The notes: generated from the letters alone by a model not told the origin. A stretch of DNA of 28,648 nt from Burkholderiales bacterium (GCA_043784585.1 JAYVYF010000192.1:1-28648), one strand, 5' to 3'. Positions 2,756 through 11,562 are shown, counted from the stretch's first letter. Numbers and translations are program-made.

Positions 2756-3000
2756 ATGCCTATGGAACGCGGCACCAAAGCATCCGCCCGCCGCCCGCCG
2801 CCCGCCACGCGCCGCGTGGCCGAGCGCTACATGATCTGGCCGGCACAGGTGCCGTCTTACAAAATCAGCAAGCTGAAAATTAACCCATTGCGCGAACGCG
2901 CGAAAAAATGCATTGAGACGAAATTCGATTTCCGCGCGTTCCATGACCAAATTTTGGGCAGCGGGCGGCTGTCCCTCAGCATGTTGGCAGCCCCGTGGAT
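2756..3000 (+). pseudogene. C-terminal remnant of a DUF885-family protein
   Basis: Translation ERYMIWPAQVPSYKISKLKINPLRERAKK..KFDFRAFHDQILGSGRLSLSML follows the DUF885 C-terminal pattern (ERY..WPGQA.aYKiG.lkI..LR.rA......FD.r.FHD..L..G.lPL) with many substitutions; the N-terminal several hundred aa are absent; boundaries approximate. Confidence 0.7.
2784..2804. repeat. three perfect tandem copies of the 7-mer CCGCCCG
   Basis: ccgcccg at 2784-2790, 2791-2797 and 2798-2804. Confidence 0.9.
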
Positions 3001-3060
3001 GCTTGGGCTTGGGCAGTCGATAATTTACAGGCTGAAACTCTCGGGTAATGTGTGGTGCTC

Positions 3061-3255
3061 TCACGCCTTCCTTTTTGGGGTAGTTTTTGCAGCCGGCTTT
3101 GTTTTCGATTTGGCCGTCCGTTTTGTTTTCGATTCGGCAGTGGCTTTCTTGTCAGACGGCGGCACGTAATCGCCGATCAAACTTTTTACCGGACAGATTT
3201 TAAAAATCGGGCATTTAATGCAGCCGGATACGATGGCGATCGGGCAGATGGTCAT
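3061..3255 (-). CDS. small Cys-rich hypothetical protein with a Lys-rich tail (64 aa)
   Basis: SD-like AAGGAAA upstream of the ATG at 3255; C-x7-C-x2-C-x5-C motif, then a K/T/A-rich basic C-terminus. Confidence 0.75.
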   Translation of the reverse strand: MTICPIAIVSGCIKCPIFKICPVKSLIGDYVPPSDKKATAESKTKRTAKSKTKPAAKTTPKRKA

Positions 3256-3355: not shown

Positions 3356-4084
3356 TCACGCTTTACACTTGGTTGTGAATTCATCCTCCAGGCGATTCAA
3401 CTCACCTATAATAAAAGCATTGATAATCGGTACGGGCTGTGATGGTCCCGTTTCGAGCGCATTTTGCTTCTTCGCGAGAAGCTCTCGAACAGCGGCTAGT
3501 AACAATGGCTGCCCATCAATCAAATGCAATAGTTTTTCAAATTCTATCGGCGCTGCACAACCGTAACTTTCTATCCACCGTACGGATAAAAGCGGACGCA
3601 GCACGTAAAAATATTTCTTGAGCGGCACAGCATCAGCGCGCAAATAGCCGCGATAGCTTGTTTTGGCCATGCTGCGGTAGTGATACATCCCGCTTTCCAA
3701 TAAATAAACATCGGGCATTAGACTGCGTGCTTGCTCCGCAAAACTGCCCGTTTCAACGTACTTGATCGGCGACTGAATCCACTCAACGAATTCGGGATTC
3801 GATTTCCAAAACAATCGCAGCGCTTTTCGAATATCCCAACCATTCAAGTCAATGTCGTCAGTAATGGCATATTCGGTAACATCGCGACGCGCTTCCAGAT
3901 CGACGGCAAGATACCAATCAGGATGACGTGCATAAATGAAGCGAACATCAAAGTCACTATCGGGCGAAGCAGACCCCTATGCGCGACTGCCGGATTGAAT
4001 CGCGAGCAAGATGCAAACGTCTTCTTCGCGCTCGGTACGGGCAAGTCGACGCATTATTTCTTTGCGAATATTGGCCGGAACCAT
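3356..4084 (-). pseudogene. predicted nucleotidyltransferase (Pol-beta superfamily, YcgL/RlaP-like) interrupted by an in-frame TAG
   Basis: Manual translation from ATG 4084: MVPANIRKEIMRRL..ILLAIQSGSRA*GSASPDSDFDVRFIY..RRDVTEY..DLNGWDIRKALRLF; TAG at 3977-3979 (codon 36) sits where the family motif ESGSRAWG has Trp; the frame continues into ORF 3356..3847. Confidence 0.8.
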
Positions 4085-4773: not shown

Positions 4774-6771
4774 TTAGGTGTTGATAGCTTTCACTGCCTT
4801 CACCAAAGCTTCCGCCGTGATTCCAAAATATTTATACAAAACTGGCGCAGGTGCCGATTCGCCAAATGTGTCAATCCCGATCACAACGCCATCCAGCCCC
4901 ACGTATTTACGCCAGTAATCAGTCACGCCGGCCTCAATCGCTAAGCGGGGCGGGGACGTTGGCAGGATGCTTACTTTGTAGGCGCTGTCTTGCTTATCGA
5001 AAATAAAGGTGGATGGCATGGAGACGACGCGTACATGAATGCCTTCTGCTGCTAACGTTTTTTGCGCTTCCATCGCCAATGAAACTTCAGTGCCGGTTGC
5101 GATGATCACGGCTTTAAGTTCCCCCGCTTCCTTCGACAATACATAGCCGCCCTTCGAGATATTCACCATCGTCGCAGCGTCACGTTTTTGGAATGGGCTA
5201 TTTTGGCGGGAGTAGATTAGGCAAGTCGGGCCGTCGTCGCGTTGGATCGCGTGTTGCCATGCAGCGGCGGCCTCAATCGTATCGCAGGGACGCCAGACAT
5301 CCATATTGGGAATCAAACGCAGGGATGCCACATGCTCGACCGATTGGTGTGTCGGGCCGTCTTCGCCGAGGCCGATGGAGTCGTGCGTAAAGACGCAAAT
5401 ATTGCGCAGCTTCATGAGCGCGGCCATGCGCAGCGCGTTGCGTGAATAATCACTAAAGGTTAAAAATGTGCCGTGGTAGGGAATGAAACCGCCATGTAAT
5501 GCGATACCGCTGGCAATCGCGGCCATTCCGAATTCACGCACGCCGTAGTTAATGTAGTTGCCGCCGGTGGTGGCGGATAACGCTTTGCTGCCGCTCCAAT
5601 TGGTGAATACTGAGCTGGTTAAATCGGCCGAGCCGCCCAGCAATTCCGGCATTTGCTGCGCGAACGCTTCGATGGCGAATTGTGAGGCTTTGCGGGTGGC
5701 GACGGTCTCGGCTTTCTCCATAGACTTATCAAGTAACGCTTTTGCAGTTGCGGCGAAATTGGCTGGTAAATCACCAGCCATGCGGCGTTTGAATTCAGCG
5801 GCTAATTCTGGATGCGCGGCTTGGTAGGCCGCGAACGTCGCATTCCATCGCGCCTCTACCGCCTGGCCTTTATTTTTGGCATCCCAAGCGTCGTAGATAT
5901 TTTGCGGAATTTCAAACGGGGCATAGTTCCATCCGATAGCCGCACGAGTGGCGGCGATTTCCTTTTCGCCCAGCGGCGAGCCATGTACTTTATCAGTGCC
6001 GCCCATGTTGGGCGAGCCTTTGCCAATCACGGTTTTGCAGCAAATGAGTGTGGGTTTATCGGTAACTTCTTTAGCCGCCATTACTGCCGCATCGACGGCT
6101 GCCGAATCATTGCCCGCCACATGCGGAATGACGTGCCAGCCGTAGGCTTCGAAGCGCATCGGCGTGTTGTCTTTAAACCAGCCTTCTACCTTGCCGTCAA
6201 TCGAAATACCGTTGTCGTCATAAAACGCAATCAGCTTGCCCAAGCCCAGGGTGCCTGCGAGCGAACCCACTTCGTGGGAAATACCTTCCATTAGGCAGCC
6301 GTCGCCGATGAAAACATAAGTGTGGTGATCGACGATATTGTGACCCTCACGATTAAACGTGCGCGCCATTTCGCGTTCTGCGATTGCCATGCCGACCGCG
6401 TTTGCCAAACCCTGCCCCAGCGGACCGGTGGTGGTTTCCACGCCAGGCGTGATGCCGACTTCTGGATGGCCGGGCGTTTTTGAATGGAGCTGTCGGAACG
6501 CTTTGATATCGTCCATCGACAAATCGTAACCGGTGAGATGGAGCAAAGCATAAATCAGCATTGATGCGTGACCATTTGACAACACAAAACGATCGCGATC
6601 CGCCCAGCGTGGGTTAGTCGGGTTGTGTTTCAGATGATGTCGCCACAGCACCTCCGCCATTTCGGCCATGCCCATTGGCGCACCGGGGTGGCCAGAATTG
6701 GCTTTTTGTACGGCATCCATCGCAAGGGCGCGAATGGCGTTGGTGATTTCAGAGCGGGTGGCTTGGGTCAT
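4774..6771 (-). CDS. tkt: transketolase
   Basis: [43 protein letters not shown] (ThDP motif), [15 protein letters not shown]; start moved to ATG 6771 (MTQATRSE) on homology grounds. Confidence 0.97.
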
Positions 6772-6856
6772 GGTCGGCGTCGGTAGGATTGAATGAGTGA
6801 AGCGACAGCTCTTTGAGAAAGCACCTGTCACGTTGCGGTAGGATCAGCACCTAATG

Positions 6857-6864
6857 ATTATAAT
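6857..6864. promoter_or_regulatory. palindromic ATTATAAT giving a TATAAT -10 hexamer on both strands between divergent tkt and speD
   Basis: Perfect -10 hexamer on each strand; no convincing -35 at 17 bp on either side. Confidence 0.3.
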
Positions 6865-6913
6865 TTGAACTGCGCCGCATACTTGCATCCGGCCCTTATT
6901 TAGAGGACACCTT

Positions 6914-7327
6914 ATGCAGGGCCTTCATATTATTGCTGATCTTTATAACTGTCCGCCTTTTACGCTGCTGACGTCAGCAGCCGCGCTGCGGGAAGCGTGT
7001 CTGCGCGCGTCCACGGCGGCGGGCTTGTCGGTCTTGGGAGAGCATTTTTATCAATTCGAAAGTTTTGATCAGGCGCAGGCAGCCGGTGTGACGGGAGCGG
7101 TAGTGTTGGCTGAATCGCATTTGGCCATACACACCTGGCCAGAACGGGATCAGGCCACACTCGACATTTATGTATGCAATGTGTCGGCAGACAATCGCGA
7201 CAAAGCGGAGGCGCTTTATACGACGCTGCTCGATGTCTTGAATCCTCGTGATGTACTCGTGCAGCGGGTGTGGCGCGGCAAGGATTTGCCGAATACCGTG
7301 GCCGAATCAGCTCCGCTTGCCGCATGA
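6914..7327 (+). CDS. speD: S-adenosylmethionine decarboxylase proenzyme (prokaryotic class 1b)
   Basis: GLHIIADLYNC, GVTGAVVLAE|SHLAIHTWPE self-cleavage/pyruvoyl site, TLDIYVC; SD GAGG. Confidence 0.9.
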   Translation: MQGLHIIADLYNCPPFTLLTSAAALREACLRASTAAGLSVLGEHFYQFESFDQAQAAGVTGAVVLAESHLAIHTWPERDQATLDIYVCNVSADNRDKAEALYTTLLDVLNPRDVLVQRVWRGKDLPNTVAESAPLAA

Positions 7328-8181
7328 CGGATTTGACGATGCGCCTCAATGAATACGTCACGAATCACTCTGGCGCTTACTTCAACGCAAGCCGTTTGAT
7401 TGAAAACCGCATCTCCGCATTTCAAACTATTGAGGTATTTGAAACCTCTGATCTCGGCAAGCTCATGCGTATCGACGGCTGCAATATGGTCAGTGAGCGA
7501 GATGAGTTTTTCTACCATGAAAATCTGATTCACCCGGTGGCAACCGCACATCCAAATCCGCAGAAGGCGTTAATTATTGGCGGTGGTGACGGCGGCGCGG
7601 CAGAAGAAATGTTGAAGCACCCGTCGATCGCAAAAGTCACGTTATGTGAGATGGATGCTGACGTGGTTGAGATGTCGATGCGGCATTTTTTTAGTGTGCA
7701 CGGCGGCGTTTTTGATAATCCTAGGTTATCGCTGGTGATCGGCGACGGTATCAAATTCATCCGCGACGCATGCGAGCAATTCGATCTCATTACGCTCGAT
7801 CTCACTGACCCGGTGGGCGAAGCCAAACCATTGTATTCACAAACGTTTTTTGCGGCCTGTAAAGCAAGACTCGCGACCGGTGGCGCGCTCACCATTCATA
7901 TCGGATCACCATTTGCGCACCCGGTCCGCGTGAGCCAAAGTGTCGCTAATTTGCGTGCCCAATTTCGTATCGTGAATGTCTGGTTTGTCCACATTCCCAT
8001 GTACGGCGCAACTTGGGGCTTCGCGAGCGGATCAGATGCGCTTGACCTTCGCAAGGTCAGCACTGCTGAAATCGACAAACGATTAACAGACCGCCACATC
8101 GGTGCACGACAGTTTTATAACGGGGAAACCCATCACGCCATGCAGGTGCTGCCTGAATATGTCCGCGCGCTGTTCAGGTAA
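7324..8181 (+). CDS. speE: polyamine aminopropyltransferase (spermidine synthase family)
   Basis: ERDEFFYHE, ALIIGGGDGG, CEMDADVV, DLTDP; start set at ATG 7324, which overlaps the speD stop (ATGA). Confidence 0.88.
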   Translation: MTDLTMRLNEYVTNHSGAYFNASRLIENRISAFQTIEVFETSDLGKLMRIDGCNMVSERDEFFYHENLIHPVATAHPNPQKALIIGGGDGGAAEEMLKHPSIAKVTLCEMDADVVEMSMRHFFSVHGGVFDNPRLSLVIGDGIKFIRDACEQFDLITLDLTDPVGEAKPLYSQTFFAACKARLATGGALTIHIGSPFAHPVRVSQSVANLRAQFRIVNVWFVHIPMYGATWGFASGSDALDLRKVSTAEIDKRLTDRHIGARQFYNGETHHAMQVLPEYVRALFR

Positions 8182-8219
8182 TATCGGTGTTATTTGCTAA
8201 AATTCATCGAGGATATTCG

Positions 8220-8564
8220 ATGCTTAAAAAAATTCGTAAATCGAGTTCGCATATTTCACTGGCTTTGATTGGTGCCGCCGCATTGGGCGTAACGCTGGCA
8301 GGCTGCTCGAAACAAGAAACGCGGCGCGATGTTTATGCCAGCAAGCAGGATTGTTTAGCCGACTGGGGACAAACGCCGCAAGATTGCGAACCCGCCTATG
8401 ATCGTCCCACCGGCAACGGCGCAATTACACATTATTATGGCCGCTCCTACCCCTATTTTGGTGGGTCTGGAATATCGTCGCCCTCACGCTCAGGCAAAAC
8501 CATTGGCTCATCCAGCGTTAGCCGCGGTGGGTTCGGTTCCAGCGGGCATTCCTCGTCGGGATGA
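8220..8564 (+). CDS. small lipoprotein, minimal YgiB/DUF1190-like
   Basis: Basic N-terminus, hydrophobic core and lipobox LAG-C29; YASKQDC..WG...DC motif; Ser/Gly tail with SRGGFG; SD GAGG before ATG 8220. Confidence 0.75.
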   Translation: MLKKIRKSSSHISLALIGAAALGVTLAGCSKQETRRDVYASKQDCLADWGQTPQDCEPAYDRPTGNGAITHYYGRSYPYFGGSGISSPSRSGKTIGSSSVSRGGFGSSGHSSSG

Positions 8565-8598
8565 GCACTCATTCTGAAGAACAAAACAAAGAACAAAA

Positions 8599-9771
8599 AT
8601 GAAACGCGAAGCTTTGATCCCGCGCCCCGACTGGCCGAAAAAAATGGAAGACTTGGGTTTTGGTTTCCACTCTATTGACGGCATTTATTGGGATGAGCGC
8701 GCTTGCTATTCGTTTACGGCGGCACAGATTGATGTATTGGAAACGGCCACTAACGAATGCCACCAGATGTGTATTGCCGCGGCACAGTATGTGATCGATA
8801 AAAAGCTGTATGCAAAATTCGCCATTCCGCCTGAATTTATTCCGCTGATTGAGCGCTCGTGGAGCAACGATGAAGCCACTTTGTTTGGCCGCTTTGATTT
8901 TTCGTGGGACGGTGGTGTGTCAAGCGCTTCTTTGCCTAACGGCATCGCAGATAGCCAGCCTAAAATGCTCGAATACAATGCCGACACCCCGACATCATTG
9001 ATCGAAGCAAGCGTGGCGCAATGGTATTGGCTACAAGAAGTGAAACCTGGCGCGGATCAATTCAACAGCATTCATGAGAAGCTGATTGCACGATTTCAGC
9101 AAATTGCAAAAGAATTAGGAACGACCATTCACTTCACCTGTGTTGGCGACGGCGAGGAAGACCTCGGCAATCTTGAATACCTGCGCGATGCGGCCATGCA
9201 GGCGGGGATAGAGGCTAAATTTATCGACATTGCGCATATTGGCTGGGATGCCATCGCAAAAAAATTCGCAGACGATGAATTTCAGGAAATCAAAACGCTG
9301 TTCAAACTCTACCCCTGGGAATGGATGGTGCGCGAAGCGTTTGGCCGCAATCTGCTTGATAGCGACATGCGCGTCATTGAGCCCGCATGGAAAATGTTGC
9401 TGGCCAATAAAGCGATTTTGCCGATTTTGTGGGAGCTATATCCCGATCACCCTAATTTGCTGCCCGCCTATTTTGAGCCGCAAAAATTCGCTACTGATTT
9501 CGTAAAAAAACCGCTGCTGTCACGCGAAGGTGCGAACGTCACAATTACCTCCAGCCGAGGTGAAATCGCAATACCCGGCGACTATGGTGCCGAAGGTTTT
9601 ATTTATCAGGCATACCATCCTGTGCCAAATTTTCGCGCCAATGGCGAAGACAACTATGCCGTGATTGGCTCGTGGATTATTGGCGATGAACCCGCCGGCA
9701 TTGGCATTCGCGAAGACGAATCGCCCGTCACCAAAAACACCAGCCGTTTTTTGCCGCACTACTTTGAATAG
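8599..9771 (+). CDS. glutathionylspermidine synthase-family ATP-grasp ligase (YgiC/YjfC-like, no amidase domain)
   Basis: 390 aa; LFGRFDF, KMLEYNADTPTSL, FKLYPWEW, IEPAWKMLLANK, KKPLLSREGAN, VIGSWII, GIRED, SRFLPHYF. Confidence 0.92.
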   Translation: MKREALIPRPDWPKKMEDLGFGFHSIDGIYWDERACYSFTAAQIDVLETATNECHQMCIAAAQYVIDKKLYAKFAIPPEFIPLIERSWSNDEATLFGRFDFSWDGGVSSASLPNGIADSQPKMLEYNADTPTSLIEASVAQWYWLQEVKPGADQFNSIHEKLIARFQQIAKELGTTIHFTCVGDGEEDLGNLEYLRDAAMQAGIEAKFIDIAHIGWDAIAKKFADDEFQEIKTLFKLYPWEWMVREAFGRNLLDSDMRVIEPAWKMLLANKAILPILWELYPDHPNLLPAYFEPQKFATDFVKKPLLSREGANVTITSSRGEIAIPGDYGAEGFIYQAYHPVPNFRANGEDNYAVIGSWIIGDEPAGIGIREDESPVTKNTSRFLPHYFE

Positions 9772-9798
9772 TTTTCCAACAACATCGGGAATACAAAA

Positions 9799-10212
9799 AT
9801 GAAACATCAAATCATGGAATCATTTTCCGGCTTCGACGATTTTCTCGTCTATCTTGCCATTGCGTCTTTATTGCTCGCCTGCTTCGTCGCGATTTATATT
9901 CGGATTACGCCTTATCGTGAGATTGGCCTGATCCGCGAGGGCAATATGGCGGCGGCGTTCAGTCTTTCCGGTGCCCTGATCGGCATGGTCATTCCGCTAT
10001 CGAACGCGGTCGAGTACAGCGTGAACCCCGTTGACATGGCGATCTGGGGATTCATCGCGTTGGGCATTCAATTGATCGTATTTGTCATCGCACGGATTGC
10101 GCTGCCAAATATCGTGCAGGATATTCCAGCGGGTAAACAAGCCGCCGGTTTTTTTCTGGGGGCGATCTCGATTGCGGGGGGAATTTTGAATGCGGCTTGT
10201 ATGACCTACTAG
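9799..10212 (+). CDS. DUF350-domain inner-membrane protein (YjfL-like)
   Basis: 137 aa, about 4 TM segments; ITPYRE..LIREGNMAAA and GILNAACM motifs. Confidence 0.88.
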   Translation: MKHQIMESFSGFDDFLVYLAIASLLLACFVAIYIRITPYREIGLIREGNMAAAFSLSGALIGMVIPLSNAVEYSVNPVDMAIWGFIALGIQLIVFVIARIALPNIVQDIPAGKQAAGFFLGAISIAGGILNAACMTY

Positions 10213-10219
10213 ATGGTGG

Positions 10220-11029
10220 TCAGACCGGTTCCGTTTCCGCCTGACCGGGCCGCCATTTCAACAGCCTATTCTCGGCAAACGTGACCACGTAATCAAGCAA
10301 CAGCGCAAACACGGTCAGCACCAAAATACCGGCGAAAACAGTGTTGATATCGAACGTGCCTTCGGCTTGGTGAATCAGATAACCGACCCCGCTTGCACTG
10401 CCTAGATATTCGCCCACCACTGCCCCCACGAATGCCATGCCGACCGATGTATGCAGGCTGGAGAATACCCATGACGTGGCTGACGGCAGATAGACAAAGC
10501 GCAGTAATTGCGCTTTGGATGCACCCAGCATTCGGGCGTTATTCAGGACCACGGGCGAAACTTCCTTCACACCTTGGTAGACGTTAAAAAAGACGATGAA
10601 AAATACCAGGGTGACGCCCAACGCCACTTTCGACCAAATGCCGAGTCCAAACCAAACCATAAAAATGGGGGCCAGGATTACACGTGGCATCGCATTTGCG
10701 GCTTTGATGTAAGGGTCTGCAATTGCGGAGGTCATCGGTGACAAGCCCAGCCACAGGCCAACGCCTAATCCTGACACCGTACCGATAAAAAACGCGAGTG
10801 CTGTTTCTTGCAGCGTGACCCAAAGATGCGAATAGATTTCGCCGCCGGTAAACCAAACCCAAATCGCCTTGAAAATTCGTAACGGCTCACCAAAAAAGAA
10901 AGCGGCTTTATCGTCGTTTTCAAAAACGAAATTGGGAAGAAGGCCGGGCACGGTCAACACGTGCCAAGCACCGAAGATCGCCGCGAGTAAGCCGATTTGA
11001 ATAAGCCATAAAAATCGTTGACGACGCAT
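10220..11029 (-). CDS. ABC transporter permease, NitT/TauT (SsuC-like) family
   Basis: PRVILAPIF..WFGLG, EAA-loop-like NNARMLGASK..YLPS, GAVVGEY; start moved to ATG 11029, just after the upstream stop. Confidence 0.9.
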   Translation of the reverse strand: MRRQRFLWLIQIGLLAAIFGAWHVLTVPGLLPNFVFENDDKAAFFFGEPLRIFKAIWVWFTGGEIYSHLWVTLQETALAFFIGTVSGLGVGLWLGLSPMTSAIADPYIKAANAMPRVILAPIFMVWFGLGIWSKVALGVTLVFFIVFFNVYQGVKEVSPVVLNNARMLGASKAQLLRFVYLPSATSWVFSSLHTSVGMAFVGAVVGEYLGSASGVGYLIHQAEGTFDINTVFAGILVLTVFALLLDYVVTFAENRLLKWRPGQAETEPV

Positions 11030-11034
11030 ATTTT

Positions 11035-11562
11035 TTAGCGTGTTCGAAGCGTTTTGGCGCGTTCGCCGTATTGCTGATAAGCCGGAATCGCGATGGCCGC
11101 AACAATGCCTGAGAGCGGAATAATCAGCGCACAAATCCATGCGCCGATCAATACAGCGGTAGAATTTGGCGTGGTTTTACTGCCCCAGCGGTTGGTCCCG
11201 TTGGTGCCGGGAATAAACAGGAACACGAAGTTAATTAGTGGCACCAGTATAAGAATGCTCAGCCAACCGCTGGTATTGAAATCATGGCTGCGCTGAATCG
11301 TCAGCATAAACTGCATGACCAACAGCGCGATATAAGCCGGAATCATCGCCAAGCCGGCTGTGACCAGAGAGAGTAGAGCGCCGACGCTGATAATGACCAG
11401 CGATAGCCCAACTAAGTAGACAATGTATCGTGCCCGACCCATTCTGCCGCTCACCGAAAAAGCGCTTACTTTCTGCGGCGTATCCTGATCTGTGCCAACG
11501 ATGTTTTCGCTACGAGGCGCGCTATAGGGATTTTGATTTACTGTGGTGACAGGCTCATTCAT
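11035..11562 (-). CDS. DUF805-domain membrane protein
   Basis: NPYSAP, FSVSGRMGRARY, IQRSHDFNTSGW, PGT.G.NRWG; C-terminal AAIAIPAYQQY; SD GGGGAG before ATG 11562. Confidence 0.85.
   Translation of the reverse strand: MNEPVTTVNQNPYSAPRSENIVGTDQDTPQKVSAFSVSGRMGRARYIVYLVGLSLVIISVGALLSLVTAGLAMIPAYIALLVMQFMLTIQRSHDFNTSGWLSILILVPLINFVFLFIPGTNGTNRWGSKTTPNSTAVLIGAWICALIIPLSGIVAAIAIPAYQQYGERAKTLRTR

Follow-up and report, generated by a model that had tools for sequence, protein, structure and literature searches.

A spermidine-synthesis gene pair at the head of a DUF1190–ligase–DUF350 operon in a Burkholderiales bacterium

The stretch of DNA analyzed here (28,648 nucleotides, GCA_043784585.1 JAYVYF010000192.1:1-28648, referred to below as the window) belongs to a Burkholderiales bacterium of soil or glacier habitats represented by a 3.14-Mb metagenome-assembled genome that is 92% complete. 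Between positions 6914 and 10212, an open reading frame (ORF) call on the window recovers five plus-strand genes: speD, speE, a lipoprotein gene, the gene of an ATP-grasp ligase, and a DUF350 gene. The stop codon of speD and the start codon of speE overlap in the ATGA at 7324-7327, and the remaining gaps (speE/lipoprotein, lipoprotein/ligase, and ligase/DUF350) measure 38, 34, and 27 nt; a site scan of the window saw no terminator-like sites within them. A preliminary description of the locus had reported five co-directional genes with an ATGA overlap and gaps under 40 nt, and both the ORF call and direct reading of the sequence confirm this layout. The gene order recurs at 16 loci of the same genus and in other betaproteobacterial lineages, far above chance expectation, and the five genes constitute a real, well-conserved operon.

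The first gene, speD (6914..7327, plus strand), encodes a class 1b pyruvoyl S-adenosylmethionine (AdoMet) decarboxylase proenzyme of 137 residues, recovered in profile searches by PF02675 (93.3 bits) and by TIGR03330 (85.6, passing a cut-off of 75.65). The translation contains the AESH self-processing motif (AESHLAIHTWPE) and the downstream cysteine of a YVCN motif; activity is predicted, and the closest solved relatives are the AdoMet decarboxylases of Aquifex and Thermotoga. Neofunctionalized SpeD homologs are known (PMC10407285); unlike them, the SpeD of the window is paired with speE. This second gene (7324 (ATG)..8181, plus strand) encodes a polyamine aminopropyltransferase of the spermidine synthase type, 285 residues long, that matches PF01564 (155 bits) and passes NF002010 (306.9 against a cut-off of 260) while scoring under the cut-off of TIGR00417 (214.5 against 249.55). 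An alignment with E. coli SpeE spans 276 residues at 33% identity and brings the GGGDG and DLTDP motifs into register. The best match in the PDB is the Thermus polyamine aminopropyltransferase 1UIR, which we take to be an enzyme of broad specificity.

The genome as assembled contains two further spermidine-synthase-like genes, both PRK04457-like, on contigs C332 and C371 (L003:2-658 and L004:1156-2049). Both are weak matches that fall under curated cut-offs, and both could also draw on the single SpeD. With respect to diamine supply, searches of the genome (92% complete) for SpeA, SpeB, and SpeC-type genes found none, and the sole PF02784 protein is LysA. Complete congeners carry a PF01276 (SpeC/LdcC/AdiA-family) decarboxylase of about 760 residues, and the apparent gap in putrescine supply is therefore treated as a consequence of incompleteness.

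The third gene (8220 (ATG)..8564, plus strand, with GAGGA upstream) encodes a minimal lipoprotein of the DUF1190 (YgiB/YjfM) family, only 114 residues long. Its signal peptide contains the lipobox LAGC; a Cys-pair motif (DCLADWGQTPQDCEP) is present, and the C-terminal tail (SRGGFGSSGHSSSG) is rich in Ser and Gly. The features that it has in common with DUF1190 lipoproteins are the lipobox, DCLADWGQTPQDC, the C-terminal tail, and the position of its gene directly 5' of the ligase gene. Profile evidence is limited to the N-terminal 60 residues, which match NF008655 (DUF1190) with an E-value of 9e-7 and 28.9 bits against a cut-off of 223; there is no Pfam match at E up to 0.01. The Undibacterium ortholog passes PF06693 (25.3 against a cut-off of 22), and the protein of the window reads as a shortened DUF1190 form. 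The signal, the N-terminal Cys-pair motif, and a C-terminal RGGFG are common to all orthologs in the genus, to the partners in Undibacterium and other Betaproteobacteria, and to YgiB and YjfM. Beyond RGGFG there is only a short segment, in which Ser, Gly, Arg, and His are abundant. At 62 of 77 loci drawn from many phyla, the ligase start is found only a few bases from the end of an ORF with an RGGFG tail; in these 62 the median distance of the motif from the C-terminus is 10 residues. In the clades in which the module is linked to speD and speE, the length of the lipoprotein ranges from 111 to 163 residues.

The fourth gene (8599..9771, plus strand) encodes an ATP-grasp acid-amine ligase of the YgiC/YjfC type, that is, of the peptide-spermidine ligase family. 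The protein has 390 residues, matches PF03738 (GSP_synth) over the full model (480.5 bits, positions 1-371 of 371), lacks an N-terminal CHAP amidase domain, and is the product of the only GSP_synth gene in its genome. Its closest PDB matches are YgiC (7UK8, E 9e-105) and YjfC (7UK6, 5e-90), followed by trypanothione synthetase (5e-34) and the E. coli glutathionylspermidine synthetase GspS (5e-24), and its alignment with YgiC and YjfC runs the full length. The roles and numbering of the catalytic and ATP/Mg residues of GspS are here presumed to be those given in the GspS structure papers. On that basis, the equivalents of GspS R316, D318, E330, N332, E391, K498, K533, R538, and R598 all occupy invariant alignment columns, and the ligase residues R98, D100, E125, N127, K271, K304, R309, and R371 match R316, D318, E330, N332, K498, K533, R538, and R598, respectively. 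The glutathione site is different: T130, T132, and S133 stand in place of GspS S335, S337, and C338, with P131 between the first two, exactly as in YgiC and YjfC, such that the GspS motif NADSASC gives way to NADTPTSL. Compared more broadly with GspS and trypanothione synthetase, the ligase shares the ATP-grasp family PF03738, the Mg/ATP and acyl-phosphate residues, and, as predicted, spermidine as the amine, but it differs in the missing amidase domain, in the replaced glutathione-site residues, and in an identity of about 30% over the synthetase domain. These features place the ligase in the YgiC/YjfC peptide-spermidine ligase family, and spermidine-peptide ligation, an activity known solely from the E. 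coli enzymes, is its predicted activity. The preliminary description had likewise set it beside the amidase-less paralogs YgiC and YjfC, a placement that the PDB ranking and the replaced glutathione-site residues bear out.

Two further observations concern this ligase family. The ligase of the window carries a species-specific in-frame insertion of 36 nt (8914..8949, plus strand; 12 residues, GVSSASLPNGIA) in the loop between the R98/D100 and E125/N127 strands. In the alignment, YgiC, YjfC, GspS, and the ligases of the two nearest relatives (96% and 93% identity) all lack this insertion, which is found without differences in metagenome contigs. Elsewhere in the class, tandem arrays of five and three GSP_synth paralogs (L059:777-6391 and L060:7024-10373), about 40-46% identical to the ligase of the window, have neither an RGGFG-tail partner nor a DUF350 gene nearby.

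The fifth gene (9799..10212, plus strand) encodes a DUF350 (YjfL-family) inner-membrane protein of 137 residues with four transmembrane helices. PF03994 recognizes it at 122.5 bits (cut-off 26), its identity to E. coli YjfL is 43%, and no second DUF350 gene was found in its genome. An AlphaFold2 model (predicted local distance difference test score, pLDDT, 92.7) consists of four long helices. A fold search with this model reached other DUF350 models only and no solved structure (lowest E-value in the PDB, 1.6); the fold therefore offers no clue to function.

Judged by sequence and gene content, the last three genes are the known YgiB/YjfM-YgiC/YjfC-YjfL module, arranged in the order lipoprotein-ligase-DUF350. 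In E. coli K-12, ygiB (DUF1190) and ygiC follow tolC, and yjfL (DUF350), yjfM (DUF1190), and yjfC end the yjfIJKLMC operon; RefSeq names the products of both ygiC and yjfC ‘peptide--spermidine ligase’. The window resembles these loci in a ligase that is 48% and 44% identical to YgiC and YjfC, with the mapped catalytic residues and NADTPTSL retained, in an RGGFG-tail DUF1190 lipoprotein encoded directly 5' of it, and in its YjfL-like DUF350 protein. It differs in gene order, that of E. coli yjfLMC being DUF350-lipoprotein-ligase; in the reduction of the lipoprotein; and in the absence of the PspA (YjfJ), YjfI, YjfK, and TolC genes. No gene for PspA/IM30 (YjfJ), YjfI (DUF2170), or YjfK (DUF2491) lies between the transketolase (tkt) and ABC (ATP-binding cassette) permease genes that flank the operon, and PspA (PF04012) was not found in the genome, 92% complete as it is; PspA, YjfI, and YjfK genes are present in other members of the class (L052, L054, and L056). 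A further difference is that speD and speE head the operon of the window, whereas E. coli speED lies elsewhere in the chromosome. The preliminary description had identified all five gene products correctly except that the lipoprotein, with its N-terminal match to NF008655, was not recognized as DUF1190; it was for this reason that the ygiBC/yjfLMC module went unnoticed.

The biochemistry of the E. coli enzymes supplies a framework for interpreting the module. YgiC and YjfC make no glutathionylspermidine according to Sui 2012, as that work is cited in PMC12506659 and PMC11762307, and peptide-spermidine ligase activity in vitro has since been attributed to both in Pederick 2023 (Biochemistry 62:899), with the physiological substrate unknown, according to PMC11762307 and PMC12568646. 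The preliminary description had stated the first of these points, which stands; its account was outdated with respect to the second. Operons that combine a GspS-like ATP-grasp ligase with DUF350 and DUF1190 proteins, with or without a CesT/Tir-PspA dyad, have also been described, and include AdoMet decarboxylase variants (Ravi 2024, mSystems, PMC11237479); for the same association of ligase, DUF350, and polyamine genes, that study cites Li 2019 (Biochem J 476:2579). The operon of the window is like those described in its core of ligase, DUF350, and DUF1190, in the presence of an AdoMet decarboxylase gene, and in the absence of PspA. It is different in its full speD and speE genes; genes for a polyamine oxidase, a K+ channel, DUF2491, DUF4247, and DUF2617 are all absent from it. 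The polyamine-conjugation pathway proposed in the preliminary description is therefore not seen for the first time here: such operons, AdoMet decarboxylase variants included, are already on record in that work.

An additional parallel is found outside the module. In Pseudomonas aeruginosa, the PmrAB-controlled genes PA4773-PA4775 (speD2-speE2-PA4775) reportedly place spermidine on the cell surface, where it protects the outer membrane (PMC3572637, PMC9746822). There, too, a speD-speE pair, in this case a second, envelope-directed one, shares its operon with a gene that has no known function. No ligase, DUF1190, or DUF350 is reported at the P. aeruginosa locus, however, and no two-component system lies beside the operon of the window. 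We regard speD2-speE2-PA4775 as a functional analog for envelope-directed supply of spermidine.

The linkage of speD and speE to the ligase module was followed through genomes of the same genus, which adjoins Usitatibacter (61 genomes, 24 of high quality, with 16 loci examined), through a sample of the order (151 genomes, each at least 90% complete), and through the nearest loci (80, at 48-74% ligase identity). All 16 genus loci show tkt followed by speD-speE-lipoprotein-(GNAT)-ligase-DUF350, and the speDE-linked five-gene order is also found in Usitatibacter (G071) and Undibacterium (G033). Within the genus, speD and the ligase gene are each present in 54 of 61 genomes and in 23 of the 24 of high quality; a 99% complete congener (G122) is without ligase and without speD, yet keeps the PF01276 decarboxylase. 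Among the nearest loci, speD-speE lies directly upstream of the ligase in 22 of 80, down to about 54% ligase identity. All 22 are betaproteobacterial, comprising the genus itself, Usitatibacteraceae, Undibacterium, and one further metagenome-derived clade, with several titled only Burkholderiales or Pseudomonadota. The ligase tree places the linked loci in one group of 29 rows with three subclades, and the SpeE tree recovers the same three linked clades, relations among them being not settled. In the wider order the ligase is found in 10 of 151 genomes and speD in 55. The other ligase loci of the class sample belong to the PspA-linked yjf type, consist of lipoprotein-ligase-DUF350 with no speDE, or are arrays of tandem ligases.

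The surveyed loci also vary in composition. In several congeners a GNAT acetyltransferase gene (PF00583) is situated between the lipoprotein and ligase genes (L037:4626-5228; also L036, L038, L039, L044, and L086-L088), and may encode a polyamine or conjugate acetyltransferase. In Undibacterium, SpeD and SpeE are fused into a 428-residue protein (L047:7214-8500), and open frames of 396-506 residues across speD in many genomes of the order (L163 and L164 among the loci) suggest that SpeD-SpeE fusion is common. In a genome from another family of the order (G094), lipoprotein-ligase-DUF350 adjoins an opposite-strand class-III aminotransferase gene and a speE gene (L069:8716-10053 and 10230-11057); no speD was found in that genome.

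It is probable, at roughly 0.6 in our estimation, that the operon couples its spermidine-synthesis pair to the YgiB/YjfM-YgiC/YjfC-YjfL envelope module, with the polyamine made by the operon serving, as we infer, as the amine substrate of the ligase. From family membership, SpeD would produce decarboxylated AdoMet, and SpeE would transfer the aminopropyl group onto a diamine, most likely putrescine, to yield spermidine or a close aminopropylated amine; the putrescine would come from the SpeC-family decarboxylase encoded elsewhere in the genus. The cytoplasmic ATP-grasp ligase would then convert the carboxylate of a peptide or protein to an acyl phosphate and join it to the polyamine by an amide bond, as its E. 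coli homologs reportedly do in vitro, while the DUF1190 lipoprotein and the four-helix DUF350 protein would act as obligate partners that tie this chemistry to the envelope; the envelope delivery or sensing that the preliminary description ascribed to these two is conjectural. Several lines of evidence argue for this coupling: the gene order is conserved, the catalytic residues are intact, and speD and ligase are jointly present or absent in the genus; the genes are joined by a 4-nt overlap and by gaps of no more than 38 nt that are free of terminator-like sites; the linked ligases all occupy a single region of the ligase tree, and the RGGFG-tail partner is a recurrent 5' neighbor of the ligase; and associations of polyamine genes with ligases of this family have been described before (Ravi 2024, PMC11237479).

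A number of observations weigh against such coupling, or limit its scope. Forty-nine of the 55 speD-bearing genomes of the order have no ligase, and among the 10 ligase-bearing genomes speD is adjacent in four, elsewhere in two, and not found in four; coupling of speDE to the ligase is therefore not general. Since speD is the sole AdoMet decarboxylase gene, the pair may also, or mainly, serve general spermidine needs. The linkage could possibly have a single origin followed by losses, and be conserved by inheritance, or it could have a few separate origins. The amine substrate of SpeE, and hence the polyamine made, may be something other than putrescine and spermidine. With respect to expression, metagenomes from glacier, ice, and sediment contain the whole operon region, and two RNA-Seq-labeled runs (X3 and X4) hold it whole, but on contigs of 50-60 kb, a length from which these runs are probably DNA. 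In the only true metatranscriptome among the runs that contain the region (X20), coverage is confined to a handful of short contigs of low depth on the last three genes (lipoprotein, ligase, and DUF350); none spans all five, and they neither support nor refute a single transcript.

Several of these observations are also what would be expected if there were no dedicated coupling at all, and housekeeping speDE genes merely stood beside the ligase module in one betaproteobacterial lineage and were inherited there, the ligase perhaps using spermidine nonetheless, as in E. coli, and the operon not amounting to a self-contained pathway. The solitary AdoMet decarboxylase gene fits this account, as do the possible single origin of the linkage, the wide occurrence in the order of speD-speE units of the same type, often fused, without a ligase, and the occurrence in most lineages of the ligase module without speDE. 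We nevertheless consider it unlikely. The linkage persists among lineages in which ligase identity is no more than about 54-60%, and has survived insertion of the GNAT gene, fusion of speD to speE, and variation of the lipoprotein across its full range of lengths. Further, speD and ligase are both missing from the nearly complete congener G122, and other polyamine genes are reported beside members of the ligase family in unrelated lineages (PMC11237479). What the distribution does establish is that the speD-speE linkage is stable within a lineage and not general either to the module or to speDE. The preliminary description had named rare linkage of speD-speE to the other three genes as a refuting result; the linkage is stable in the lineage (16 of 16 loci) and not general in the order. 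The suggestion that scarcity of free spermidine in Betaproteobacteria points to a dedicated use is weak, with speD present in more than a third of the sampled order (55/151), mostly without a ligase, and four of the 10 ligase-bearing genomes without speD.

Because an RGGFG-tail ORF adjoins the ligase at 62 of 77 loci, the tail of the lipoprotein is the most concrete candidate for the acceptor of the ligase, and it is conceivable that the operon makes a spermidine-capped lipoprotein, in which the C-terminus of the RGGFG tail would be amidated with operon-made spermidine either before export or on a DUF350 platform during export. Such a product would be a tethered polycation in the envelope, and the tail would be the natural substrate that has long been sought for E. 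coli YgiC and YjfC. We offer this proposal tentatively and think it improbable in this specific form. The last residue of the tail is Ser at 37, Gly at 23, and Glu at two of the 62 loci; with Ser exceeding Gly in these counts, conservation does not extend to a C-terminal Gly of the kind found in glutathione. The partner, moreover, has a signal peptide with Cys in nearly all lineages, as a check of other phyla for cytoplasmic, signal-less partners showed, and the ligase is cytoplasmic. Given an exported partner and a ligase that is a cytoplasmic ATP enzyme, modification of the tail would have to precede or accompany export.

Some Negativicutes carry polyamine covalently attached to their peptidoglycan, a precedent for a different acceptor. 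The ligase might act on a small or cell-wall peptide, such as a peptidoglycan stem peptide or precursor, with DUF350 exporting or holding the conjugate and the lipoprotein serving as a periplasmic receptor or regulator; the outcome would be either envelope material modified with polyamine or a shunt that buffers polyamine. The separation of a cytoplasmic ligase from an exported lipoprotein and the variable end residue of the tail, both awkward for a lipoprotein acceptor, are readily accommodated here. In addition, the E. coli enzymes are described in PMC11762307 as acting on peptides, and the P. aeruginosa speD2-speE2 operon supplies surface spermidine (PMC3572637, PMC9746822). The cluster contains no peptidoglycan or transporter gene, however, and the DUF350 protein has no structural likeness to any solved transporter. 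We consider this acceptor, too, quite doubtful.

That the ligase is a plain glutathionylspermidine synthetase, storing or protecting glutathione and spermidine as E. coli GspS does, is highly improbable: its Pfam GSP_synth membership, the catalytic residues that it shares with GspS, and the adjacent spermidine-synthesis genes would suit such a role, but the replaced glutathione-site residues and a score of 139 against a cut-off of 882 for NF007801 (bifunctional glutathionylspermidine enzymes), with only the C-terminal third matching and no amidase domain, speak against it, as do the far closer relationship to YgiC and YjfC (E 9e-105 and 5e-90, against 5e-24 for GspS) and the report, cited in PMC12506659 and PMC11762307, that these make no glutathionylspermidine (Sui 2012). 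The preliminary description had named simple glutathionylspermidine synthesis as the result that would undo its interpretation, and the NF007801 score and the NADTPTSL motif make that result unlikely.

The surroundings of the operon contain further features. Upstream, tkt (4774-6831) lies on the opposite strand and is divergent from the operon; downstream, the ABC permease gene (10220-11140), also on the opposite strand, is convergent with it. The 82-nt tkt/speD intergenic region contains a palindrome, ATTATAAT (6857..6864, readable on either strand), that presents a perfect -10 hexamer (TATAAT) both ways and is the sole invariant block of the region in an alignment of 17 loci. It is possibly a shared -10 element or an operator, a candidate for the control of the operon, of tkt, or of both; it is missing from the output of the consensus promoter scan because it has no -35 match. 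An Rfam search of positions 6000-11000 at E up to 1 found no match, and hence no riboswitch or leader. Farther upstream, two short ORFs are possible gene fragments, one (2756-3169) matching only positions 466-529 of the 532 in the DUF885 profile and the other (3356-3847) only positions 74-231 of the 249 in the RlaP profile.

The operon described above is another member of a known and functionally unexplained module, with a complete spermidine-synthesis pair attached, and does not constitute a new kind of system; what is new here is a linkage of speD-speE to the ligase module that is lineage-restricted but stable. The role of YgiC/YjfC ligases, DUF1190 lipoproteins, and DUF350 proteins is still unexplained, even though they are set in the tolC and pspA-like operons of E. 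coli. The operon of the window is a minimal form of their association, with a lipoprotein of 114 residues and without PspA, TolC, or a K+ channel, and as such offers a compact five-gene unit for testing. The linkage of speDE to the module, finally, lends independent support from genomes to the view that the ligase naturally uses a polyamine as its amine.

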